Part shown: in pieces, positions 2,700-28,064 of the stretch
Layout of the letters: every line of letters begins with the position of its first letter
How positions within the stretch are numbered: position 1 is the stretch's first letter
DNA from: a virus
Length of the DNA: 64,000 bases
Virus record (IMG/VR): IMGVR_UViG_3300037483_001012
Coordinates: 1-64,000 of that record
Reading direction: 5' to 3' (one strand)
Translations under genes and position numbers: made by a program
The notes under the pieces: generated by a model
The model's database searches: none
Told to the model about the DNA's origin: nothing
The model's input: only the letters and a program-made list of their open reading frames with translations

Positions 2700-2769
2700 A
2701 CGCCACTATTATCCAGTGAGCTAAAATTCTGACGTAAAATCAATGGCCGGAGCCGGCACGGCCGAACTC

Positions 2770-2792
2770 ATGTTGGACAGTTTGTTGGACAG
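2770..2792 (+). repeat. Putative integrase arm-type site, right of core
   Basis: 23-bp perfect direct repeat of 2583-2605. Confidence 0.8.
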
Positions 2793-3114
2793 TGCCGGTG
2801 CTGACCGACTGCATCGATCGCTGCGGCGGTCGCGGCCGGCGCTAGGCCCGCGCTCAGGCGGGCGCCGACGGCCGCCAGCGCGCCCATACCCTAGCGCTAG
2901 AGCCGCGCGCCGACCGCGCCACCATGCCCCGCCGACGGTGCGGCGGTCAGCCGAGCCTCGCCGACAAAGGTGCTGCGAAGCTCAAGCAGCTCCTGAGCAC
3001 CACCACCGCAGGACCAAAATAGTCGGGGAATTACCCAAACTTGCTCTTCTTTACCCCTTCACAAATATCAATTTTCTGATATTAGTAATTAACCGTCATG
3101 GAGGTCCAATTCGT

Positions 3115-3435
3115 ATGCGCGCGCACCGGCTAAAAATCTGGCCAGCACAATTTGCCGCCATCGAAAACGGCTTCCTGCGCACGCAATTGCGAAGGGCCGA
3201 TCGCGACTACCGCGTTGGGGATAAGCTGCTGCTGACCGAATTTGACCCGGGCGCCGACAAACTGACAGGTAGATATTGCGGCGTCGAGGTCACCCACATT
3301 CTCACGACGGCCGATCATCCGCACGGGCTGCTCGACGACTTTGTGCTGCTGAGCATTGAGGTATGCGGAGATTCCGATATGGGCGGTCTGCTTGGCCAAA
3401 GCTGGTGCGCTCACGTCGAATGGGTGAAGCCATGA
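3115..3435 (+). CDS. ASCH/PUA-fold (DUF3850-like) protein
   Basis: HRLKIWPAQFAAI...RRADRDYRVGDKLLLTEF pattern; GGAGG RBS upstream of ATG 3115. Confidence 0.75.
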   Translation: MRAHRLKIWPAQFAAIENGFLRTQLRRADRDYRVGDKLLLTEFDPGADKLTGRYCGVEVTHILTTADHPHGLLDDFVLLSIEVCGDSDMGGLLGQSWCAHVEWVKP

Positions 3436-8484: not shown

Positions 8485-8606
8485 TTGTTCGCCTCCACCG
8501 CCCATTCACTGATAAAGTCCAGACAGGTTAACCACATCTGAATGTGATGGTTCAATCCATGCTTATCCGGTTGACTCCCAAACCTACTTGGGCTAGTATT
8601 CTCGGC

Positions 8607-9659
8607 ATGAACAGCACCTCCAAGGTTCACGACATTCACCAGCGCGACGACCTCGCGTTCCCCACTTCTTTGAGGGGGTTTCAGAAGCTTTTCCCCGATG
8701 ACGCGGCGTGCGCGGCCTATTTGGAGCGCGTCCGCTGGCATGGAACTTTCGAGTGCCAGCATTGCTCCGAAAAGGGCGATCCCTACCGCTTTGCAGGCCG
8801 GCCGGGCGTGCTCCGCTGCCGCAAGTGCCAGCGGGACACGAGCCTGATGCGCGGAACCGTGATGCAGGACACGAAAACCCCGCTCACGGTTTGGTTTTGG
8901 GGTGCCTACCTCGTGTCGAGTATGACGCCCGGCATGTCGGCGGTGCAGTTCCAGCGGCAACTTGGCCTTAGCCGGTACGAAACCGCCTTTAATATCCTGC
9001 ACAAGCTGCGCGCGGGCATGGTGCGCCAAGGCCGGGACCGGATCGGCGGCAACCTCGCGCGCGGCGATCACGTCGAGATTGACGAGACTTACATCGGCGG
9101 CGCGGTGCGCGGCCAAGGGCGCGGCCCGCAAGATCAGACCCTTGTCATGGCCGCCGTCGAGGTCCGCACCCGACCGGCCAAGAAGGGCGACAAGCCCATG
9201 CGGCGCGGTGGGCGCTATGCTGGCCGGTTGCGCTTGGAAATCGTCCCCAATCGCGGCGCACGCGCCATGACGAGCTTTGTAGAGGCGGCAGTAGAGCCGG
9301 GCGCGATGGTCATCACGGACGGCGCGCCGGGCTATAGCACGCTTGCCAAGCTCGGCTACCAGCACTTGCCGGTTGTCGAGGGGAACGACCCGAAGGTGGC
9401 CGAAGAGTTTCTGCCCATCGTCCACCTTGTTTTCTCGAATTTGAAGGCTTGGCTTGGCGGAACGCACCACGGGCGCGTCGAGCCAAAACATCTGCAAACC
9501 TACCTGAATGAGTTCGTTTTTCGATTCAATCGCCGCTTTTACCCGTTCAACGCCTTTCGCTCGCTCTTGGGCATCGGCACGAACGGGGAAGGTCCGACAT
9601 ACGCCGGCCTGTATTCCGGCGACTGGAAACACCCCACGATGGCAAGCCGCCACGGCTAA
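8607..9659 (+). CDS. IS1595-family transposase
   Basis: Zinc ribbon CQHC...CRKC; EIDETYIGG, ITDG, KHLQTYLNEFVFRFNRR. Confidence 0.93.
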   Translation: MNSTSKVHDIHQRDDLAFPTSLRGFQKLFPDDAACAAYLERVRWHGTFECQHCSEKGDPYRFAGRPGVLRCRKCQRDTSLMRGTVMQDTKTPLTVWFWGAYLVSSMTPGMSAVQFQRQLGLSRYETAFNILHKLRAGMVRQGRDRIGGNLARGDHVEIDETYIGGAVRGQGRGPQDQTLVMAAVEVRTRPAKKGDKPMRRGGRYAGRLRLEIVPNRGARAMTSFVEAAVEPGAMVITDGAPGYSTLAKLGYQHLPVVEGNDPKVAEEFLPIVHLVFSNLKAWLGGTHHGRVEPKHLQTYLNEFVFRFNRRFYPFNAFRSLLGIGTNGEGPTYAGLYSGDWKHPTMASRHG

Positions 9660-9684
9660 GCCCGCAACATCTAGGAGAGACATC

Positions 9685-10284
9685 ATGCCCTTAAATCTTC
9701 GGAACCCCGCCGCTCTTGGTGCTTTCGCGAAGGGTGATCTTGAAAACGCAATGGTCGCCTCGACGCCGGGCGGCATCGAACGGCAAGAAAAAGCGGGCCA
9801 AGGCGAATTGGTGAATTCCACCAATATGCCGCTCGAATTGCGGCCGAGCCGCGAGGCTTTCGAGACGGTCGGATTCACGTTCGGAGAGGCGTTGGACGAC
9901 GTGTTCATGAAGGCCACGCTCCCGACCGGCTGGAAGCGGGAAGCCTCAGAACACGCCATGCACTCCTACATCCTCGACGAACAGGGACGGAAGCGGGTCG
10001 AGGTATTCTACAAAGCCGCATTTTATGATCGGCGCGCCGACGCAGGATTGATCGGACGCTACAGCGTCCAGTCCTGCTACCCGGACAATCCGAGCGGCGA
10101 AGGTCTGGCCGAAGATGAAATTCGCCATGTCGTTTTCGATGGCGGCACAGAAATTCACCGGATGCCCGTATGCAAACGTAGTGATTGGTCAGCGCGGGAA
10201 CCCTCAGAGAAAGCGGCGCGCGCATGGCTTGCGGAAAGGTTCCCGCGCGCGGACGACCCGACTGCTTACTGGTCAGAGTCATGA
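9685..10284 (+). CDS. IS passenger gene, phage-type hypothetical protein
   Basis: Inside the TIRs; AGGAG RBS; STPGGIERQE...FYKAAFYDRRA. Confidence 0.8.
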   Translation: MPLNLRNPAALGAFAKGDLENAMVASTPGGIERQEKAGQGELVNSTNMPLELRPSREAFETVGFTFGEALDDVFMKATLPTGWKREASEHAMHSYILDEQGRKRVEVFYKAAFYDRRADAGLIGRYSVQSCYPDNPSGEGLAEDEIRHVVFDGGTEIHRMPVCKRSDWSAREPSEKAARAWLAERFPRADDPTAYWSES

Positions 10285-10343
10285 GGGCCATTTCCGATGC
10301 TACATCATCTGGCGTCATTGGGAGTCAACCGGATAAGCATGGT

Positions 10344-10793
10344 TCAATCTGATCCGCCACCATCGATATACGAATATAGCGATCGCCCCGTCTTCGGACA
10401 GACCGTCTTCGTCATCCGGCCGGCCGCGACCTCTTCCTCGCAGCTTTCCTCGAGAATCTTCGTCAGCCCTTCGATCGCGAAACCATCCCTGATCTCGGGC
10501 GACCGGTTGGCGACTGCGGTGAGCGCAGTGGCAACCTCATCGTCAGTCGCGCCAATCGCGGAAAGCGCAGCGGCGGCGTCGAGCGAGCCAAGGCCGGCGA
10601 TCACCTTCAATGCGTCGACCAACAATATGTTTGGTAAAAACGAGATGCTAGATTCCTCGATGAGGCTGGCGACGGCATCCATCAGATTTCGCCTCGTCAT
10701 GCGGGCATACCGGCGAGCCGCGTTTATGGCCGCGGTCTTGAACGCCTCGCTCGCGGTGTTGCCTGGCTGGTCGTCTATTACGATGCTTGCCAT
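10344..10793 (-). CDS. Hypothetical protein; stop codon lies in the IS target duplication
   Basis: 149-aa ORF in the minus-strand run. Confidence 0.6.
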   Translation of the reverse strand: MASIVIDDQPGNTASEAFKTAAINAARRYARMTRRNLMDAVASLIEESSISFLPNILLVDALKVIAGLGSLDAAAALSAIGATDDEVATALTAVANRSPEIRDGFAIEGLTKILEESCEEEVAAGRMTKTVCPKTGRSLYSYIDGGGSD

Positions 10794-10805
10794 GGTCAGG
10801 CCACC

Positions 10806-11003
10806 TTAATATTTGGCGTTAACGGTGACTTTGATAGCGCGATGCACACCATATTTGCTGTTATTCTTCCACGTTTTGTCGCTCACTCCATACGCCTTCT
10901 TGAATGTCGCGATGGAGTCGCGCCGAGTACGGCATACCGTGTCGACATAGACGCGACCGTTCCAATGACGAATGGCCCAGCCATTGACCGGCTCTATCTT
11001 CAT
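10806..11003 (-). CDS. Hypothetical protein
   Basis: AAGGA RBS; ATGA overlap with upstream gene. Confidence 0.6.
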   Translation of the reverse strand: MKIEPVNGWAIRHWNGRVYVDTVCRTRRDSIATFKKAYGVSDKTWKNNSKYGVHRAIKVTVNAKY

Positions 11004-11260
11004 GTCAAATCCTTGTCGGTTGGAATGAGATCGCGGCAATCGCGCTGAAACACATTGCCGGTTTTCTCATCGCGAACCTGGAACCCGCCGCCGCGCGGCG
11101 CAACGATGATGCCGTCGAAGCCGGCGACCATGCCGCACCGCTTGGAGTAGACCTTGTCGCCGGATTTAAATTCGTAATCGCGCCGAGAGAGGCTGTCGCG
11201 CCGGAAACCAGATTTAGATGGCCCGGGTTTGTTGGCAGTGTTGTAACCATGGCTGGTCAT
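11000..11260 (-). CDS. Hypothetical protein (KOW/SH3-like motif)
   Basis: FKSGDKVYSK...GIIV motif. Confidence 0.55.
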   Translation of the reverse strand: MTSHGYNTANKPGPSKSGFRRDSLSRRDYEFKSGDKVYSKRCGMVAGFDGIIVAPRGGGFQVRDEKTGNVFQRDCRDLIPTDKDLT

Positions 11261-11269
11261 GAAATTTTA

Positions 11270-12101
11270 CATGCTTATCCGGTTTAGACATACAGGCTCT
11301 AGATGTTGTGTCATGCTGCGGCCTCATCGTCGTCGGGATCGCGCTCATATTTCTCTCCGTAGACGCGCTCATAGAGTTCATCGGTTGCCTCGCATCTTGT
11401 CCAAGCCTGTTCACCCGCCGGCGGGTTGAAATATCCCTGCCCGGCAAAATTCCAGCCCTCGTCAAAGGTCAGGCACTTGAACTGCAAAGCTGGAAACTCG
11501 CGGGCGAGCGCGGCGAAAATCGGCTCTGGAAACCCCCACGCCGTCTCAAAGAGAAATTCGAGCGGATCATCGCTGACGGGACGGAAGGAATAGGAGTTCC
11601 ACTTCGTCCCCCAATTAGCGATGTTCCAGGAATACCAGCCCGCAAAGCCCGTTTCGAGGATCGCTTGTAGCCGAAGGCGGCCGGCGGTTTCGTATTCGGG
11701 GTTTTTTGCAAGATAAGCCGCCGCAACTTCCCTAATTGGGGCATCGGGCATTGCGACTTCGTCGCGGAACCGCTGAATATGCGTGTTGTACATCCCCATC
11801 GTTTCGAACGGCGCGCCGCGCTCGGCGCGCAGGATGACTAAGCGCGCGCCATATTCGCTGATTGTCGATTCCTCAATTTTACTGAGGATGACTGGCGCGG
11901 GGATGATCTTGTCGAAATCGAGAAGGGTATAAGGCTCGCCCTTCTCGTCGGTGGTCGTGACGACCATCCGCGCACGGAAGGTGGCCAAATCCATGGCCGG
12001 GCCGATCACCGTGCATCGCGTCGTTACGTGATTTGGCATCTGGATTAGCCCTCTACATCTAGTGGGTTTTTGCGCACTGTGTCGTTAACCGGATAAGCAT
12101 G
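11270..12101 (-). mobile_element. Non-autonomous IS1595-derived cassette with one cargo gene and no transposase
   Basis: 15-bp perfect TIRs CATGCTTATCCGGTT (11270-11284, 12087-12101) identical to the ends of the 8558-10341 element; 8-bp duplication AAATTTTA (11262-11269, 12102-12109). Confidence 0.88.
11311..12039 (-). CDS. DUF1281/YubB-like (ferredoxin-like domain) protein, cassette cargo
   Basis: MPNHV...DFDKIIPAP...WYSWNIANWGTKWN...FETAWGFPEP...FPALQF. Confidence 0.8.
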   Translation of the reverse strand: MPNHVTTRCTVIGPAMDLATFRARMVVTTTDEKGEPYTLLDFDKIIPAPVILSKIEESTISEYGARLVILRAERGAPFETMGMYNTHIQRFRDEVAMPDAPIREVAAAYLAKNPEYETAGRLRLQAILETGFAGWYSWNIANWGTKWNSYSFRPVSDDPLEFLFETAWGFPEPIFAALAREFPALQFKCLTFDEGWNFAGQGYFNPPAGEQAWTRCEATDELYERVYGEKYERDPDDDEAAA

Positions 12102-12106
12102 AAATT

Positions 12107-12307
12107 TTACTCTTCGCGTTCCTCGGGAAGATTGAATGAGGGTAGCGTAATTGCCTTCGGTGCCGCGTTGCCGGTTTTTCTTTTGCCGCCGTCAGAGAAC
12201 CGATTGGTTGCCTTCGCCGTTGCGCGGCGCAGTGCGCTACGAACGTCGCCGCGGATCGGCTTGGATGGGCTGGTATAGCCTTCGAATTTATGCGTCGTCA
12301 TCATCAT
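12107..12307 (-). CDS. Hypothetical basic protein; stop codon lies in the cassette target duplication
   Basis: 66-aa ORF abutting the upstream gene. Confidence 0.55.
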   Translation of the reverse strand: MMMTTHKFEGYTSPSKPIRGDVRSALRRATAKATNRFSDGGKRKTGNAAPKAITLPSFNLPEEREE

Positions 12308-14657: not shown

Positions 14658-15323
14658 TCATAGGTCACCGCTCGATATGTGTCGATCAAGCTTATATTTT
14701 TCGACCGCCGAATAGATGTTGCGGCCGCAGCCGTAAGCGTTTCTTCCGATGTCGAGTTCAAAGTGGCCGAGATCGCCGCGGCACCAGTCGCCACCACTGA
14801 CCAGCCCGGCGGCGCGCGCCATCCGGCTGACCGCCGCCTTATCCATCCTGACCGTCACCTTGCCGCGCGCGACTTGATTGATGTCGATCGCTAGGCCCTT
14901 GGGATGCATGTTGCAGCCCGCACAGCTACCGCTCGGCCGCCACCCGCCCATGAACTTGATCGGGTAACCGGAGGCGGTGAGATCGGCGCAGAACCGCTCG
15001 AATGGCGCCTTGGCCCGGGCCGCGACCCTGGCAGTCCGGCCACCGCAGGTCATGGTGACAAGGCCGCGTTTTGCCTGCGAGGCCCGCACAGGCGTTTTCC
15101 TGATCCCGGCACTATGGCGGGCCGCTCGCTGGCCTTTCGCTGCCCGGCGGGCCGCCCGGCGCGCGCTCTTGGTGTTCTTTTCCCGAATGGCTGCCCAATC
15201 CGAGCATCCGAAGCGATCGCAGGTAATCACGACATGGCCCGACGAACGGGCTTTGGCTGCGGCGGCGGGGGTCGAAAGAATGGCGGCGGCCAAAACGGCC
15301 AAGACGATTCGCGAGAATTTCAT
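14658..15323 (-). CDS. M15-family (VanY/D,D-peptidase-like) peptidoglycan peptidase with signal peptide
   Basis: GGWR...MHPKGLAIDIN...DLGHFEL zinc motif; N-terminal signal peptide. Confidence 0.75.
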   Translation of the reverse strand: MKFSRIVLAVLAAAILSTPAAAAKARSSGHVVITCDRFGCSDWAAIREKNTKSARRAARRAAKGQRAARHSAGIRKTPVRASQAKRGLVTMTCGGRTARVAARAKAPFERFCADLTASGYPIKFMGGWRPSGSCAGCNMHPKGLAIDINQVARGKVTVRMDKAAVSRMARAAGLVSGGDWCRGDLGHFELDIGRNAYGCGRNIYSAVEKYKLDRHISSGDL

Positions 15324-19136: not shown

Positions 19137-19982
19137 TCACCGCAGGTCGATATAGCGCCCGGCAACCCATCCAGATTTTCTGCCGACGTCGACCAGCATC
19201 CACAAATCGTCACCGTTATGATCGGTGCTGCGGATATTTACGGTCGCTCCCCGCTTGATCGCGCCAATCAGTTTATTGGAGGCGCCGGGACCGGAGCGCA
19301 TATTGAGCGAACCAACATTGACCACGCCCGTATTATCGGCCGCCTTGTCCGCGGCTTTACCTATTCCGGTGGCGCGGCCGAACACCTTGGCGCGAACGTT
19401 CTCGAGCGGGAACAGCGGTGAGGTATTGATCTTGCGGCCGGGACTGATTTCCCAATGCGTGCCGATGAAGGTCACGCCATAGGTCTCGCGGATCGCCGTG
19501 CAGAGCCCGATGACGGTGTCCACCTGGGCGGCCGTATAGTCGAGCCAGTAGCCCTTGCCGTGCGCCGGCGAATGCGCCTCGCGCACGATATGATTGGCGT
19601 CCGCGGTCACCTTCACCTTCAGCCCGTTGACATATTGCTGCTCGCTAACCTTCTCCAGCTTGCCGGGATTGACGATCTCGTGACCGATGGCAAACCCGTT
19701 AACGTTTGGCCTGCCCCTCCAGTTTGATCGGCCGGCGTGCCATGTCCGGACGTTGAGCGGCGCGAGTTGGGTGATGGTGCCGTCGCGGGCGATGACCGTG
19801 TGGGCGCTCGCCTTGGCCGCCGGATTGCAGAGCCATGCGATAGAGCCGTCCGCCTTCAGACCACCGGCGGTATCATGGAGAATAATGCCCTCCGGCTTCA
19901 GGGCACCCGACTTGTTAGGCGTTTCCTTATAGGCACACGGCTTGCCGTCGACAAAAATACGATGATTGCGAATCTCAATCAT
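19137..19982 (-). CDS. Endolysin: N-acetylmuramoyl-L-alanine amidase plus SH3b domain
   Basis: IILHDTAG...ASAH...WHAG...IGHEIVN...GTHWEISPGRKI; C-terminal LNMRSGPG...GWVAGRY. Confidence 0.9.
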   Translation of the reverse strand: MIEIRNHRIFVDGKPCAYKETPNKSGALKPEGIILHDTAGGLKADGSIAWLCNPAAKASAHTVIARDGTITQLAPLNVRTWHAGRSNWRGRPNVNGFAIGHEIVNPGKLEKVSEQQYVNGLKVKVTADANHIVREAHSPAHGKGYWLDYTAAQVDTVIGLCTAIRETYGVTFIGTHWEISPGRKINTSPLFPLENVRAKVFGRATGIGKAADKAADNTGVVNVGSLNMRSGPGASNKLIGAIKRGATVNIRSTDHNGDDLWMLVDVGRKSGWVAGRYIDLR

Positions 19983-20862: not shown

Positions 20863-22599
20863 CTAAAGGTTGTCCTCCCACCCTACCGCTTTGACTGAGC
20901 ACGCTGAGTCACTCCCATAGTAAGCCATCGTCGTTCCTTCAACCGTCATGGTGCTGACAAGAGCAAGAGCGATGCCGGTCGATGTCATTCTTACAAGCTG
21001 GTTCGCATTTGTGACGTTACTCGGCCCAATCTGACAGACATCATTGGCACCAATGAACTGCACGCTAATGCGCGACGCGCTTGGCGGTGTGACGTTTGCA
21101 ATCGACACTGATGTAAATGTCGAGGACGTCGTCCCCGTTGCAATAGCGGGGTAGACCGTGGTGTTTGTGGCCGGGGTTACCGTATATTGCGCGCTGCGCC
21201 CGTACTGTAGCGTCCGCATCCACCGCGCCGTCGCCGCGCCATCGGTTCGGGCGTAGCCGACGCGCATGCAAAACGTGTAGCCAGATGGATTGGTCCCGGC
21301 CGCGAGCAACGCGGCGCAAGACGGATGGAGCGAATACAACCCACCCGAGACGCCAGTAGTCGGGTTGTAGAACACATAAACGGCGTACCAAGTGATCGTG
21401 TTATTGACGATTGTTCCGGTGTCTAGCCCGTTAATGCCAGATGCCGTCATGACCGGCGAGACCGATACGCCGGTCAGCCGCACTGCGGCGCCGGCGGCGT
21501 CCTCAAGCGTCAACGCATTGGCGGTAATGTCCATTGTCGTCGTTGGCGCACCGGTATTGTTTACGATCTTGAGAGCCTTGAACGCCCCAGCGATCGTGCG
21601 GTTCGTGATCAGGTTGAGCGGCCGCCAGACGTTCGTCGTCCCGTCGTAGCGGAACTGCTGCGTCGCTCCCGGCGTCAACGAGATCGGGAAAGGCATGTCG
21701 AAGCGATTAGCCGCCGACGAGCTGGCGTGGTTGGCGCCAATGGTCAGCGTATCGACGGCGTCGATATTCGCGATCGTAATTTGCCGGCCGGCGGCGCCTC
21801 CGGTTAGGCCGGTCAGGATCTGGCTCCCGGTCAGCGTTACCCGGATCGTCTCTACACCGACAAGCCCGGTCGGCGCCCAGTTGTCGGTTTGCGCCGCAAG
21901 CGCCGTTGGCGAGATCGTGCCGGAGTAAGTAACCGCACTGGTGAAATTCGCGCTAAAGTCGATAGCTGTTCCATCGGCTCTCTGGTAGCCGAAAATAGCC
22001 CAGTTTCCGCCGCCGATATGCCTGGCCCAAGCATAATCGCCAGCCTGCGTGGTGATGTCGTTTGCACCAGGCAAGATCAACGAAGTGGCATTATATGTGA
22101 GCGGAGCAATGCCGGAGAAGGAAATAACCTTTAACTCGTTGGGCTGACAATTATTGGAGAAAGAAGAGATCGTTGCCGTTCCCGTGATCATCACTACCGA
22201 CTGAGGAACACTACAGAGATCGACGGTTGCCGCACTGGTTAACGACGCACTGGCTCCGCCGCCAATAATCGGCGTCCAAATGTGGTTTACGGCATCTATA
22301 GCGCCGATGGTAAGCCACGACGCTCCGTCAAAAACCTTACGGCGAGTGGGCGTTGTTGAGCTATCGTCCCAGCACTGGCCAACAGCAGGCAATGAGTCTG
22401 TGGCGTTCGATGGCGCCGAAGCGCCACTATTGCAAGTTACCAATGCCGCCAGAGCTGCGCTGATATTGGTGGAGAATGTCAGGCCACTGATCGTGCCAGT
22501 GGTCGGCATGACCAGCGACCCCTGTGAGGCCTGTGCGCCGCCGCCGCCAAGCAGCGCTATAGCAAAAAGGGCATGGTAAACCGTCCGACGAATGGTCAT
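20863..22599 (-). CDS. Putative tail fibre/spike protein with signal-like leader
   Basis: T/G/S/A-rich; N-terminal domain homologous to that of 23918-27727; ends VGWEDNL. Confidence 0.75.
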   Translation of the reverse strand: MTIRRTVYHALFAIALLGGGGAQASQGSLVMPTTGTISGLTFSTNISAALAALVTCNSGASAPSNATDSLPAVGQCWDDSSTTPTRRKVFDGASWLTIGAIDAVNHIWTPIIGGGASASLTSAATVDLCSVPQSVVMITGTATISSFSNNCQPNELKVISFSGIAPLTYNATSLILPGANDITTQAGDYAWARHIGGGNWAIFGYQRADGTAIDFSANFTSAVTYSGTISPTALAAQTDNWAPTGLVGVETIRVTLTGSQILTGLTGGAAGRQITIANIDAVDTLTIGANHASSSAANRFDMPFPISLTPGATQQFRYDGTTNVWRPLNLITNRTIAGAFKALKIVNNTGAPTTTMDITANALTLEDAAGAAVRLTGVSVSPVMTASGINGLDTGTIVNNTITWYAVYVFYNPTTGVSGGLYSLHPSCAALLAAGTNPSGYTFCMRVGYARTDGAATARWMRTLQYGRSAQYTVTPATNTTVYPAIATGTTSSTFTSVSIANVTPPSASRISVQFIGANDVCQIGPSNVTNANQLVRMTSTGIALALVSTMTVEGTTMAYYGSDSACSVKAVGWEDNL

Positions 22600-23917: not shown

Positions 23918-26900
23918 TCACAATGGGAGCATGAATTGACGGGCGTAGTTGGCCTTGATGGTGCCGCTGGTGGTGATATTGCCGCCGCTCAGTCCATCGG
24001 CCGCGGTGATCTGTGTCACCGTACCGCTGCCGCCACCGCCAGCCCCAGCCGGCATGAACGTCCAGCGCGATACGCCATCGGACCAGAAGATTCCGGCACC
24101 GTACTGCGCAGCGACGGCCACAACCGAAGAACCGCCATTGATCGTGTCCGCTCCCGCGCGCTGCAGCGTAATTGTGTTGGTTCCTGACGCGACGCCGCGG
24201 AAATCAGTCAGATAAAACACCTGGCCAGCGTTCACCGCGTTCGCGGCCGGCAGGGTGTCCGTGCGTGGCGCACTCAGCGCGGTGTGGTAATAGCAACGAT
24301 CGGCGGCAGCGATCGTGCCGTTGGCGTCGCCAGTAGAATTGCAGGAGTCAATGTTAAGGCCGGAAGAACCTCGCCCGGTAGCCGCAGAAAGTGTAGCGCC
24401 GAGTGATACCGAAGTGCTGCCGATCGTCACGCTGGAATTCGTCAGCGATGCGTTCGCGATGGCCGAAAGAGTATTGGTCGCGCCGCTTATAGATTTGTTT
24501 GTCAGCGTGTCGGTCGTGGCGCGACCAACATACGTGTCTGTGCCTTGAAACGTTATTGTGGTCGCATCGGTGCCGGCGAACGTCAGGCTGGCATTGGCGG
24601 TGAGCGTCTTGCCGTTGGCTATCGTCAGCGTCGCCGAGGTGGCCGGGGCTGTGATGGCGACCTTATTGATAGACGTGGCCGCGGCAACGCCGAGCGTCGG
24701 CGTAACCAGAGACGGAGACGTGGCAAATACCGCAAGCCCACTGCCGGTCTCGTCAGAGAGGACACCGGCAAGTTGTGAGGAAGTCGTTGCGGCGAAAACC
24801 GACAGATTATTTGCGACATAGGCAACCGTGCCGCCGCCGCCGAACGCTACGGTGCTCAGATCGGTGCCAGTAAGCGTCAGTGTGTTGCTGACCGTGAAGG
24901 TCTTGCCATCAGCGACGGCCAGCGTCGAGGCGGCCGCCGGAGCCGTAATCGCCATTTTGTTGACGGAAGTAGCGGTAGCCGCTCCGAGCGTCGGCGTTAC
25001 GAACGTCGGTGAAGTGGCTCGCGCCATCGCGCCAGTGCCGGTGTTGGCCGTAACAGCAACACCCGCGATCGAGAGCGAATTACCAGTACCGGCCGTATCG
25101 AACGTCTTGTTTGTGAGGATGTCGGTCGTGGCCTTGCCGACCAGAGTGTCGGTCGACGTTGGCAATGTCAGCGTGCCGGTATTCGATATCGTCGCAATGA
25201 TCGGAGCGGTTAGCGTTTTATTGGTAAAAGTCTCCGCACCGGCGAGCGTCGCCAAGGTGCCCGCGGTAGGCAGTGTGACCGAAGTAATGCCGGTCGCGTT
25301 CAGTGTGGTCGAGAATGCACCAGAGGTGACGAGCGGCCCGGCGGTTGTAAAATTTCCACCAAGATTCATAGACCGAGCCGCATCATTCAGGATGATGGTA
25401 AGGGCTCGGTCCGCGGTCAGAACCTCGGTCGCCGCGAGCTTGATATCGAATGCTGCGCCAGTCGATCTAAGGCCGAATGACGTGATCGCTGTGTGCGTGC
25501 CTCCATCCACAGTCGGTGCGGTGAGCGTCTTATTCGTCAAAGTGTCGGTGGTGGTCCTGCCGACGTAGGTGTCGGTGCCCTGGAAGGTGATGGTCGTCGC
25601 GTCAACACCGGCCAACGTGAGCGAGTTGCTCGCGGTCAGCGTTTTTAAACTCGCGATCGTCAATGTTCCGGTGGAGGAAGTAACCGAAAGACCGTTGATG
25701 GTCTTATTGGTCAATGCTTCAGAACCGGCAAGCGTCGCCAAGGTCCCAGTTATGGGAAGTGTGACGTTCGTCGACCCTGCGGCCGTCAGCGTCAATGGGA
25801 AGGCCCCGGCGGTCGAGAGCGCACCGGCCGTCGTCAGGTCGCCTGCCAGGTTGATCGTTCTGGCCGCATCGTTCACGACAAAGCTCAGCGCGCGGTCAGC
25901 AGTCAAAATTTCGCTGGTGGCCAAGGTGAGATCGAACGCGGCGCCAGTCGATCTGATTCCCAGGCCGGTCAACGCAGTGTGTGTTCCGCCAGCGATTGTC
26001 GGGCCCGTAAGCGTCTTGTTAGTGAGGGTGTCCGTCGTGCCGCGACCGACATAGGTATCGGTACCTTGAAACGTCAATGTGGTTCCGTCGACGCCAGCCA
26101 AGGTCAAACTGTTGCTTGCCGTCAGCGTCTTACCGCTAGCTATGGTCAGCGTCCCGGTCGTCGCCGTGATAGTCAGACCATTGATGCTGGTGGCCGTCGC
26201 AACGCCGAGCGATGGTGTGGTCATCATCGGGCTGGTGAGCGTTTTGTTGGTCAGCGTCTCGGTACCGGCCAAGGTCGCGAGAGTCCCTGTCACCGGCAAG
26301 GTGACATTGGTCGACCCGGTCGTGGTCAATGTCAGCGCATTGGCTCCGCTCGTCGAAAATGCGGCAGCGGTTGTTATGTCGCCACCCATATTGAGCGTGC
26401 GGGCCGCGTCATTGACCGTGACTGTGAGAGTTCGGCCGACTGTCAGGTTCTCGGAATTCGCCAGCGTGAGGTCAAAGGCCCCGGTCCCGCCGGATCTAAT
26501 GCCAAGCGACGTGATGGCCGTGTGGGTTCCGCCGTTAATGGTCGGCGCGGTCAGCGTCTTCGACGTCAGCGTCTGGGTGGCGCCGAGGGTGACCACCGTG
26601 TCGGATGAGCCCGGGAAGGCGAAGCTCGTCCCGTCCGTTCCTGTGAACGTCAGGGTATTGCTGGCGGTCAGCGTCTTGAGATTGGCGATCGTGAGTGTGC
26701 CGGTGCTCGAGGTGATCGTCAGGCCGTTGATAGAGGTGGCCGTGGCCGCGCCCAAGGACGGCGTCGTGAATGCCGGCGAGACGGCGCGCGCCACGGCGCC
26801 GGTGCCGGTGTTCGCTGTAACCGCGAGCCCATCGATCAGCAGGCTATTGCCGGTGGCCGCGGTATCTAATGTCTTGTTCGTAAAGACGTCAGTGGTCGCT

Positions 26901-27727
26901 TTACCGACCAAAGTGTCGGTCGCGGCCGGTAACTCCAAAGTCCCGGACGCAGCGGCCGCGGCCTGCAGCAAAGTGGAGCCAGAGCCAGAGCCAGACATTG
27001 TAACGGAAGCCGCCGTGGCTGCGCCGATATTCGGAGTGACCAACGACGGAGACGTCGACAAGACAAGTGGGCCAGTCCCGGTATCAACCACCGGGGTGCT
27101 CGAGTAGACCTGATAATTTGTACCGTCAGAAACGATCCGGATGCCGCGATTGGGCTTGAGCACAAGCGATGTTTCGCCACCGATCGTGCTGGTCGTTGGC
27201 GTGATCGTCGCCGTTGCCGATCCGGTATAGCGAACATCGACATACCATCCGCTTTGGAAGATGGAGATCGCGCCGGCTTGTGGCAGGGTAGACGCGACCG
27301 CACCCGCGTTGGAATAGATTACCAGCGCGCCTTTGTCGGCATCTTGCAAAGTGTCGGTCGTGCCAGATCGCTCTACCGGGACCTGCAATACGCTCACGGA
27401 AAATGCGTGCGTTGTGGTATCAAGTGTGCCGGTAGGAACCCATTGGGTGCCATCATGCCACTTCAAAACCTTCGGATTTGTAGAAGTGTCCCACCAGCAT
27501 TGATAGACTTGCGCAACGTTTCCTATGCCGTTTTCTGGCGGCGTGTTGCCGCTGTTGCACGTAAACAAAGACTGTAAGCCGGGGTTCAAGTATGTCGTGA
27601 CAAACACACCCATGGTGAGTGGGCCGGTCGCCGGCATAACAATTGAGTTCTGAGCTGCGTGGCTTGGCGAAACGTATGCCAGCACCAAGGCAAGCAACAT
27701 CGGAACGAGACTGCGGAGCAGTTTCAT
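23918..27727 (-). CDS. Long Thr-rich repetitive tail fibre; probable start ATG 27727
   Basis: Recurrent TLATLAG.E.LTNKT, GTDTYVGR.TTDTLTNK and PTLG.ATATSIN repeats; lies downstream of gpJ. Confidence 0.8.
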   Translation of the reverse strand: MKLLRSLVPMLLALVLAYVSPSHAAQNSIVMPATGPLTMGVFVTTYLNPGLQSLFTCNSGNTPPENGIGNVAQVYQCWWDTSTNPKVLKWHDGTQWVPTGTLDTTTHAFSVSVLQVPVERSGTTDTLQDADKGALVIYSNAGAVASTLPQAGAISIFQSGWYVDVRYTGSATATITPTTSTIGGETSLVLKPNRGIRIVSDGTNYQVYSSTPVVDTGTGPLVLSTSPSLVTPNIGAATAASVTMSGSGSGSTLLQAAAAASGTLELPAATDTLVGKATTDVFTNKTLDTAATGNSLLIDGLAVTANTGTGAVARAVSPAFTTPSLGAATATSINGLTITSSTGTLTIANLKTLTASNTLTFTGTDGTSFAFPGSSDTVVTLGATQTLTSKTLTAPTINGGTHTAITSLGIRSGGTGAFDLTLANSENLTVGRTLTVTVNDAARTLNMGGDITTAAAFSTSGANALTLTTTGSTNVTLPVTGTLATLAGTETLTNKTLTSPMMTTPSLGVATATSINGLTITATTGTLTIASGKTLTASNSLTLAGVDGTTLTFQGTDTYVGRGTTDTLTNKTLTGPTIAGGTHTALTGLGIRSTGAAFDLTLATSEILTADRALSFVVNDAARTINLAGDLTTAGALSTAGAFPLTLTAAGSTNVTLPITGTLATLAGSEALTNKTINGLSVTSSTGTLTIASLKTLTASNSLTLAGVDATTITFQGTDTYVGRTTTDTLTNKTLTAPTVDGGTHTAITSFGLRSTGAAFDIKLAATEVLTADRALTIILNDAARSMNLGGNFTTAGPLVTSGAFSTTLNATGITSVTLPTAGTLATLAGAETFTNKTLTAPIIATISNTGTLTLPTSTDTLVGKATTDILTNKTFDTAGTGNSLSIAGVAVTANTGTGAMARATSPTFVTPTLGAATATSVNKMAITAPAAASTLAVADGKTFTVSNTLTLTGTDLSTVAFGGGGTVAYVANNLSVFAATTSSQLAGVLSDETGSGLAVFATSPSLVTPTLGVAAATSINKVAITAPATSATLTIANGKTLTANASLTFAGTDATTITFQGTDTYVGRATTDTLTNKSISGATNTLSAIANASLTNSSVTIGSTSVSLGATLSAATGRGSSGLNIDSCNSTGDANGTIAAADRCYYHTALSAPRTDTLPAANAVNAGQVFYLTDFRGVASGTNTITLQRAGADTINGGSSVVAVAAQYGAGIFWSDGVSRWTFMPAGAGGGGSGTVTQITAADGLSGGNITTSGTIKANYARQFMLPL

Positions 27728-27806
27728 TGGCTTTAGTCCTACGATCATTGAAATAAAAAGGCCGCCGATCAACGGCAGCCAATTCATCGAGGTCAGACGT
27801 TGAGCG

Positions 27807-28064
27807 TTACTTTTTGTCTGGCGCCGGCGCCTTGGCCGCTTCTGCGGCTTCGGCTTTTTTGGCCTCGGCTGCCGCATTCTTGACGCGCTCGGCGAGAACG
27901 GCGCCGGCCGCGGCGGCTTCCAAGCCTCGTGTTCTAACAGCAATATCGATGAAATTCAGCAGCACCTGGGCTTCTTGTTCGGTGAACACGGGGCGAACCT
28001 CGGCAGCGGCGACCGGAGAGGCAAGAGCGACAAGTAACGGTAGCATCGCGAAGCGTTTCATCAT
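27807..28064 (-). CDS. Small protein with signal peptide
   Basis: MMKRFAMLPLLVALASPVAAA-EV; AGGA RBS. Confidence 0.7.
   Translation of the reverse strand: MMKRFAMLPLLVALASPVAAAEVRPVFTEQEAQVLLNFIDIAVRTRGLEAAAAGAVLAERVKNAAAEAKKAEAAEAAKAPAPDKK

Follow-up and report, generated by a model that had tools for sequence, protein, structure and literature searches.

The accessory regions of phage genomes turn over fast, which is usually put down to recombination, whether illegitimate or homologous, and to homing endonucleases. The locus described here raises the question of whether transposition, too, brings single genes into such regions. It lies in a stretch of 64,000 nucleotides (the window), which comprises positions 1-64,000 of IMG/VR record IMGVR_UViG_3300037483_001012, a virus record of 112,714 bp that comes from a metagenome assembly and has an estimated completeness of 94%. 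Two elements of the window share the same inverted 15-bp termini: element 1 at 8558-10341 and element 2 at 11270-12101. We consider it highly probable that they are, respectively, an autonomous passenger-carrying element of the IS1595 family of insertion sequences and a mobile insertion cassette of the same family, which inserted separately into a temperate phage. The observations that carry this reading are the anatomy of the two elements, their independent insertion, the size and the target preference of the family, the movement of a sibling cassette and the swap of cargo on the element 1 backbone. What we infer beyond this concerns the mobilisation of element 2 in trans, the route by which its gene is expressed and any benefit of the cargo.

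Anatomy of the Two Elements

According to the part of PMC8101967 that cites Siguier, Gagnevin and Chandler (2009), members of the IS1595 family generate an 8-bp target duplication, and their transposases have a zinc-finger or zinc-ribbon N-terminus (in all groups except IS1016) and a DDE_Tnp_IS1595 C-terminus. The features of the two elements and of the DNA between them are listed here with their window coordinates and, where one applies, the strand (ORF, open reading frame).

8550-8557: left target duplication of element 1, GTTCAATC, identical to 10342-10349; fits RWWNNWWY
8558-8581, plus strand: left inverted end of element 1, 24 bp, 100% complementary to its partner; its outer 15 bp, CATGCTTATCCGGTT, serve as the signature of the family
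8571-8599, plus strand: promoter-like TTGACT-17-TAGTAT, beginning within the left end and stopping 8 nt short of the transposase ATG
8607-9659, plus strand: IS1595-family transposase, 350 aa, with N-terminal zinc ribbon and DDE-type catalytic domain (profile matches)
9660-9684, plus strand: transposase/passenger junction, a 25-nt spacer with the ACATCTAG motif and then a GGAGAG ribosome-binding site (read from sequence)
9685-10284, plus strand: passenger gene, 199 aa, of a conserved family (ORF)
10318-10341, minus strand: right inverted end of element 1, paired with the left end
10342-10349: right target duplication of element 1, GTTCAATC, including the TGA that ends phage ORF 10344-10793 on the minus strand
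10344-11260, minus strand: three small phage ORFs between the elements, of 149, 65 and 86 aa (ORF list)
11262-11269: left target duplication of element 2, AAATTTTA, repeated at 12102-12109
11270-11310, minus strand: 3' module of element 2, the 15-bp terminal repeat and a 26-nt subterminal part with a CATCTAG motif, adjoining the cargo stop codon
11311-12039, minus strand: only cargo gene of element 2, a DUF1281/Api92-like protein of 242 aa (PF18406, phrog_12644, fold match)
12040-12101, minus strand: 5' module of element 2, with the terminal repeat (12087-12101), the CTAGATGT motif and a GAGGG ribosome-binding site (read from sequence)
12102-12109: right target duplication of element 2, AAATTTTA, including the TAA stop of the minus-strand ORF 12107-12307

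The inverted ends of element 1 are complementary at 24 of 24 positions by inverted-repeat measurement; the repeat tool gives 25 nt for the arms, since the bases adjoining the duplication also pair. The transposase matches PF12762 (E 2.4e-32, profile positions 4-153 of 153), the N-terminal zinc ribbon PF12760 (E 1.1e-09) and, in NCBIfam, NF033547 (183 bits; cut-off 75 bits). It is apparently intact, because its cysteines C50, C53, C71 and C74 and residues D159, D238, H273, K280 and E302 are invariant in an alignment of 17 relatives, and it is the sole IS1595 transposase in the whole virus record. The ends, CATGCTTATC, fit nnnGcnTATC, the ISfinder consensus of the ISSod11 group, and H273 is invariant at a position where other IS1595 groups have N or E; the ISSod11 group is thereby a candidate assignment. 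The TTGACT-17-TAGTAT sequence could be the transposase promoter; it is a consensus match only, and the number of such matches in the region is not above chance. A promoter placed inside the left end, just before the transposase, is typical of insertion sequences.

The 199-aa passenger of element 1 has 382 homologues, none with a Pfam domain and all, where the source names them, called 'hypothetical protein'. The protein itself has no match in Pfam, PHROG or NCBIfam. Its structural model (predicted local distance difference test, pLDDT, 94.8) has no convincing Foldseek match, a solved-structure profile search and a protein atlas gave nothing convincing, and the best VIA-align match, to an NTF2-like fold over residues 29-125, is not convincing either (Z 5.1). 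Judged by its ends and its gene content, element 1 is an autonomous IS1595-family insertion sequence (IS) with a passenger gene, or 'transporter IS'. This term denotes the passenger-carrying insertion sequences of the ISNwi1 and ISNha5 groups of the IS1595 family.

In element 2 the terminal 15 bp, CATGCTTATCCGGTT, stand at 11270-11284 and recur inverted and without a mismatch at 12087-12101. The element is filled by its 729-nt ORF, with a leader of 62 nt before it and a tail of 41 nt after it, and a transposase would find no room. Its cargo gene matches PF18406 (DUF1281_C, the C-terminal domain only; E 1e-05, 25.8 bits against a cut-off of 22.8 bits) and phrog_12644 (E 1.7e-23), and the model of the protein (pLDDT 93.8) has 2ijr (Api92) as its top and sole significant Foldseek match (E 6.7e-06, probability 1.00, template modelling score 0.40), a score at which the domain arrangement may differ from that of Api92. 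A literature search on DUF1281 found no function for the family. Element 2 thus has IS-family ends, coding DNA other than a transposase, a target duplication and no transposase; this anatomy identifies it as a non-autonomous mobile insertion cassette of the IS1595 family, that is, transposon ends around one gene.

These readings and measurements agree with the original prediction, which had given the same coordinates for both elements, the 24-bp perfect ends, 8-bp duplication, transposase and passenger of element 1, and the shared 15 bp, own duplication and DUF1281-like gene of the transposase-less element 2. Only the start of the passenger ORF has to be corrected, from 9686 to 9685. The assignment to the IS1595 family is likewise borne out by the presence of the zinc ribbon, of a DDE_Tnp_IS1595 domain, of terminal inverted repeats and of the 8-bp duplications.

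Independent Insertion at Phage Stop Codons

The 15-mer CATGCTTATCCGGTT occurs four times in the window, against 0.09 occurrences expected from shuffles, and none of 100 shuffles reached four; no further copy is found in the 112,714-bp record, even at one mismatch. That the record is a metagenome assembly is all that speaks for regarding the repeats as chance matches or assembly artefacts. Such an explanation is next to impossible in view of the shuffles, of the two perfect 8-bp duplications, each a 1-in-65,536 event, and of the recurrence of the same architecture in dozens of independent contigs.

The duplications GTTCAATC and AAATTTTA are not the same 8-mer, and both elements stand between perfect copies of their own. 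Two separate transposition events therefore took place, as had been proposed, and elements 1 and 2 are real, independent insertions of one IS1595-type family. The duplication of element 1 overlaps the stop codon of phage ORF 10344-10793 and that of element 2 the stop codon of phage ORF 12107-12307, both on the minus strand, and no reading frame is broken by either insertion. ORF 10344-10793 is intact with or without element 1, and when element 2 and one copy of its duplication are removed in silico, 6 nt separate the stop of ORF 12107-12307 from the ATG of ORF 11000-11260. This description of gene-junction placement covers the two sites in the window.

A single composite transposon at 8558-12101, in which the pair would function together or would have come in together with the three phage genes between them, is very improbable. 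The outermost ends are mutually inverted (17 of 18 positions complementary) and a composite could form in future, which would give a route to capture new genes, but the sequences that flank it on the outside, GTTCAATC and AAATTTTA, are not alike, and a separate perfect duplication encloses each element. Origin as a single composite is ruled out by these separate duplications, so two insertions made the present arrangement. The three ORFs at 10344-11260, which have no family match except one weak PHROG match, are nevertheless bracketed by facing ends of the same family (8558 and 12101); they would be potential composite cargo, and the arrangement is a conceivable route for the capture of new cargo.

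A Family of One-Gene Cassettes in Viral Contigs

The family was surveyed with the shared 15-mer CATGCTTATCCGGTT as the seed. Exact inverted pairs were taken at a spacing of less than 4 kb, and a relaxed survey allowed up to 3 mismatches in one end. The viral contigs are metagenome predictions, and the counts are samples and lower bounds among the matches listed. A scan of public viral contigs gave at least 118 loci with the 15-mer. Exact inverted pairs numbered at least 43, and perfect 8-bp duplications flank 33 of these; there were at least 81 relaxed pairs in the 118 viral loci, with duplications that are perfect in 59 and one base off in 5. Catalogued with their cargo, the inverted pairs amount to at least 63 unique elements of 241-2253 bp. 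About fifty of the 63 are shorter than 1.2 kb and have one ORF and no transposase, and most pairs are single-gene cassettes of 240-950 bp. The idea of a gene shuttle, put forward in the original prediction, thus holds at the level of the family, on the strength of the inverted pairs, the single-gene cassettes and the cassette movement described in the next section.

The cassettes have a compact and recurrent layout. In the 5' module, counted from the tip, the start codon lies at nt 44, 59 or 63, often in or just past a CTAGATG motif. The 3' module consists of a tail of about 41 nt in some cassettes and of a stop codon made within the terminal repeat in others. Element 2 belongs to the 63/41 layout type, with its ATG at nt 63 as in the cassette at locus L068; its 40-41-nt tail layout is found also in L068, L014, L025, L033 and L116, and its inner 3' module resembles the transposase-distal ends of ACATRCA-type autonomous elements. 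Of 126 ends, 36 have a CTA[GC]AT motif at a fixed nt 29, 30 or 40, where the background rate is 0.036 per 80 nt; in our reading it would be the inner part of an end of about 45 bp. A CTAGATG(T)/ACATCTAG motif stands at fixed distances from the tip and at cargo boundaries (window positions 9664-9684, 11285-11310 and 12040-12086, and many other loci), and also between the transposase and the passenger of element 1. It may be the portion inside the end that the transposase binds, or else a junction for cargo exchange.

The target duplications have a GC content of 32%, versus 58% in the flanks, and none of 2000 resamplings was as low. They follow the roughly palindromic pattern R-W-W-N-N-W-W-Y, which both window duplications fit reasonably well.

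Most of the surveyed cargo matches no known family. The recognisable part includes D12, N6/N4 and C5-like DNA methyltransferases, a NADAR domain and weak Mom-like and MazG-like matches. The NADAR domain is encoded in full by the cassette L017:1130-1654 (E 1.1e-26). NADAR enzymes reverse DNA ADP-ribosylation, and this cargo could counter a DarT-type defence.

Bacteria are known to have both passenger-carrying insertion sequences and mobile insertion cassettes. A literature search for earlier accounts turned up no paper that deals with IS1595-type cassettes in phages, and one-gene cassettes that form a large family resident in phages, with leader and tail in common, are apparently undescribed.

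Movement of Cassettes and Exchange of Cargo

The same 365-bp transposase-less cassette is present, at 98.2% identity, at L008:11810-12174 and L067:7073-7437, with different perfect 8-bp duplications (CTATATTT and AATGGATA) and unrelated flanks. No transposase is encoded by either record, although one has terminal repeats and is thus a genome in its entirety. The identity of the cassettes at unrelated sites shows directly, for this member, that a transposase-less cassette of the IS1595-type family has moved.

Element 1 has a close counterpart in another phage, L408:7224-9239. Its 24-bp ends are identical to those of element 1, its transposase is 98.6% identical, and the nucleotide identity is 92.7% over nt 1-1091, with unrelated flanks. 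The homology stops at nt 1091, about 10 nt ahead of the transposase/passenger junction, and from the last transposase codons on L408 has three unrelated minus-strand passenger ORFs. Because a near-identical backbone is found with other cargo and between other flanks, the element 1 backbone has moved recently and its cargo has been exchanged. The duplication flanking L408 is seemingly of 7 bp (AATGAAT) and not 8.

Two elements with deleted transposases look like intermediates between autonomous elements and cassettes, and indicate how cassettes can arise: L011:400-2382 keeps transposase residues 9-145 and 300-349, and L060:8061-8330 keeps residues 7-40 and 302-346. The same cargo families also occur with and without a transposase, as in the case of a C5-methylase-like gene (L026 vs L076, L093 and L122) and of the L109 passenger (vs L098).

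Phage Elements and Their Chromosomal Relatives

The phage carries an integrase and, further along, lysis genes, and is, by this gene content, temperate. The genes that give this context are as follows.

1245-2636: tyrosine integrase
2743-3435: DUF3850 protein
14658-15323: weak peptidase M15-like match, below the Pfam cut-off
19137-19982: endolysin with amidase_2 and SH3 domains

Two large ORFs, 20863-22599 and 23918-27943, have no Pfam match.

A phage that encodes an integrase spends time in a chromosome, and ordinary host insertion sequences might simply have fallen into the prophage, their passengers being incidental and no phage-specific shuttle being involved. The chromosomal relatives lend this some support. 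A transposase match (E <=1e-60) was found in 5 of 301 alphaproteobacterial genomes, and in each of two of these five (G060 and G245) a plain element about 1105 bp long, flanked by 8-bp duplications, is present in at least 6 copies (L411, L412, L415, L416, L418, L421, L422 and L425). The ends of these elements are similar and begin CTTGCCTATCCGGTT, and their transposase is 62% identical to that of element 1. Among bacterial genomes at large, most single 15-mer matches are expected by chance; the true elements, among the matches listed, are plain insertion sequences of 1005 and 1093 bp, the elements of 101-250 bp described below, one 382-bp cassette, and a 1783-bp cargo element on a short contig of a metagenome-assembled genome. 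In the maximum-likelihood tree of transposases, some of the phage rows beyond the core clade are interspersed with bacterial ones.

We nevertheless regard such a casual origin as unlikely. The chromosomal relatives are on the whole plain, multicopy elements of 1005-1111 bp without cargo, whereas all 16 autonomous elements with a transposase close to that of element 1 have passengers (1628-2253 bp), and 15 of the 16 are in viral contigs. In the tree, element 1 falls in a clade of 12 phage rows and one metagenome-assembled-genome contig (support 94/98), the members of which all carry cargo. Ten cassette-bearing records have direct terminal repeats and are therefore packaged genomes, and each of the two cargo genes is a member of a phage gene family that has about 150 viral loci. 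Cultured phages gave only three remote transposase matches, at 24-30% identity, in gut 'Bacteriophage sp.' records.

The origin of the cargo can be approached through these viral relatives. The DUF1281-like gene has 151 of them in viral contigs, the best 52% identical, and in 80 loci examined none has ends of this kind. The 199-aa passenger has 152, and no ends and no transposase nearby were found in any of 80 loci examined. The families of both cargo genes are thus large phage families normally found outside inverted ends, which fits the capture of phage accessory genes. Presence of the DUF1281-like gene at this same locus without ends, which would speak against the original prediction in its own terms, was not observed: the loci examined share no flanking genes with the window, and no relative of the phage was found in viral and metagenome contigs.

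Elements much smaller than the cassettes, of 101-250 bp and with the same 15-bp termini, occur in metagenome-assembled genomes of Terriglobia, Nitrospira, Burkholderiales, Jatrophihabitantaceae and Methylomirabilota (L224:2448-2548, L231:3834-3944, L279:2567-2667, L272:3010-3177 and L317:2780-3029). They resemble miniature inverted-repeat transposable elements (MITEs), and four of the five have perfect 8-bp duplications, the copies being offset by one base in L272.

Source of the Transposase

An IS1595 transposase is present in 8 of 50 cassette-bearing records. Among 25 cassette-bearing genomes that are at least 90% complete, 6 encode one and 19 do not, so that most cassettes must depend on a helper, that is, a transposase-encoding element, elsewhere. 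The window is one of the minority in which helper and client are found together, and element 1 would be the obvious candidate for the mobiliser of element 2. Four cassette-bearing phage records (G005, G014, G016 and G024, with loci L014, L033, L037 and L060) have a second, distant IS1595-type transposase, 28-31% identical to that of element 1.

Several findings weigh against the pairing of the two elements or against the wider reading of the locus. The inner parts of the ends differ, being GACTCCCAA in element 1 and TAGACATACAG and AACGACACAG in element 2, and the same inner-end mismatch is seen in four other co-resident helper/cassette pairs; element 1 may not mobilise element 2, or the outer 15 bp alone may matter. 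No second copy of element 2 is known in the collections searched, and a search for a sibling by its 3' end gave only one solitary, diverged end (L409). An empty-site allele, which the original prediction had expected in related phages, was not found for element 2 with wobble-tolerant patterns in viral and metagenome contigs. The phage also has no close relative by a search of viral and metagenome contigs with the 149-aa ORF, which gave no related locus; a protein homologue search for relatives returned only a 100%-identical 112-aa form and one match at 44% identity. The nearest homologue of the element 2 cargo, at 52% identity, lies outside any ends. Element 1, finally, is atypical in having its passenger downstream of the transposase, as most of its relatives have it upstream.

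Some of these findings suit a different history, in which element 2 is a stranded relic that arrived once, possibly with its own transposase or with a helper since lost, and is now immobile and not recognised by the element 1 transposase. The differing inner ends, the lack of a second element 2 copy in the collections searched and the 19 of 25 complete cassette-bearing phages without a transposase are what such a relic would lead one to expect. However, the 15-bp termini and the duplication of element 2 are perfect, its 5' and 3' modules keep the family layout, and the L008/L067 sibling moved recently without a local transposase. The outer 15 bp are, moreover, common even to elements whose transposases are only 45% identical, and this conservation suggests that they are the part that matters. 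We therefore hold the relic history to be rather unlikely, though it deserves more weight than the casual host origin considered above, and continue to favour a cassette that can still be mobilised in trans.

Comparison with Known Systems

The elements of the window resemble the IS1595 family as described in bacteria in their 8-bp duplications and in a transposase with a zinc ribbon and a DDE_Tnp_IS1595 domain. They differ from it in that the phage-borne members never consist of a transposase alone; they have one to several passengers, or no transposase. Like a transporter IS, element 1 combines a transposase and an unrelated gene within one pair of ends, but its end type and clade are different, and its phage accessory passengers are swapped on a near-identical backbone, as L408 illustrates.

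Element 2 is comparable to the mobile insertion cassettes (MICs), for which the Bacillus cereus group provides an example in MIC231, a cassette that IS231A mobilises. As in these, its ends surround a gene other than a transposase, a target duplication is present and the transposase would be supplied in trans. The transposase family and the location in phages are different, and so is the very large and diverse set of one-gene elements with a compact 5' leader and 3' tail. A qnrS2 cassette of Aeromonas plasmids is also a mobile insertion cassette (PMC5444012). With MITEs the cassettes share non-autonomy and ends that are the same as those of autonomous elements, and the 101-250-bp forms in bacterial metagenome-assembled genomes are of this kind; element 2 and most phage copies, in contrast, carry a full coding gene.

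Very small transposable elements inside phage genomes have a precedent in MPME1 and MPME2 of mycobacteriophages, which are present or absent between related phages. These are elements of about 440 bp with short ends and a small ORF of their own; they are not IS1595-type and have no varied cargo, unlike the phage cassettes described here. In function, integron cassettes are similar as promoter-poor single-gene modules exchanged between replicons, but there a tyrosine recombinase acts at attC and attI, whereas here DDE transposition generates a target duplication.

Proposed Mechanism and Significance

The following course of events would account for the locus. Each element entered the phage separately, duplicating an AT-rich 8-mer at a phage stop codon without breaking an ORF. 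The working parts would be the ends of about 45 bp, the outer 15 bp of which are conserved throughout the family, and the zinc-ribbon DDE transposase. The transposase would bind the ends and cut with a stagger of 8 bp in a roughly palindromic RWWNNWWY target. Cassettes would be moved in trans by a co-resident transposase, encoded by the same phage, by another phage or prophage, or by the host chromosome. Their genes would be expressed via the short, reusable 5' leader and probably also by read-through out of the phage operon around them; element 2 is oriented like its neighbours. In the population, the family would then be a pool from which phage accessory regions exchange single-gene modules.

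A broader proposal can be made tentatively, and we put its chances somewhat short of even: a phage-adapted IS1595 clade may constitute a cassette exchange system of phages. It would consist of hundreds of one-gene modules, with cargo that includes DNA methyltransferases and NADAR, Mom-like and MazG-like proteins, each with ends of about 45 bp, a 5' leader and a 3' tail. A minority of helpers would act in trans between co-infecting or co-resident phages, and AT-rich gene junctions would be preferred as targets, so that genes are left intact. The window would hold one helper with one client, and paired insertions such as these may be an intermediate in gene capture.

If the proposal is correct, a further and mechanistically defined route would exist by which accessory genes, and probably counter-defence genes among them, pass between unrelated phages, and whatever lies between the ends would be a ready catalogue of candidate accessory genes. 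The system would also be a simple one, with one transposase, ends of 15-45 bp and an 8-bp target, and the window would provide a natural pair of helper and client.

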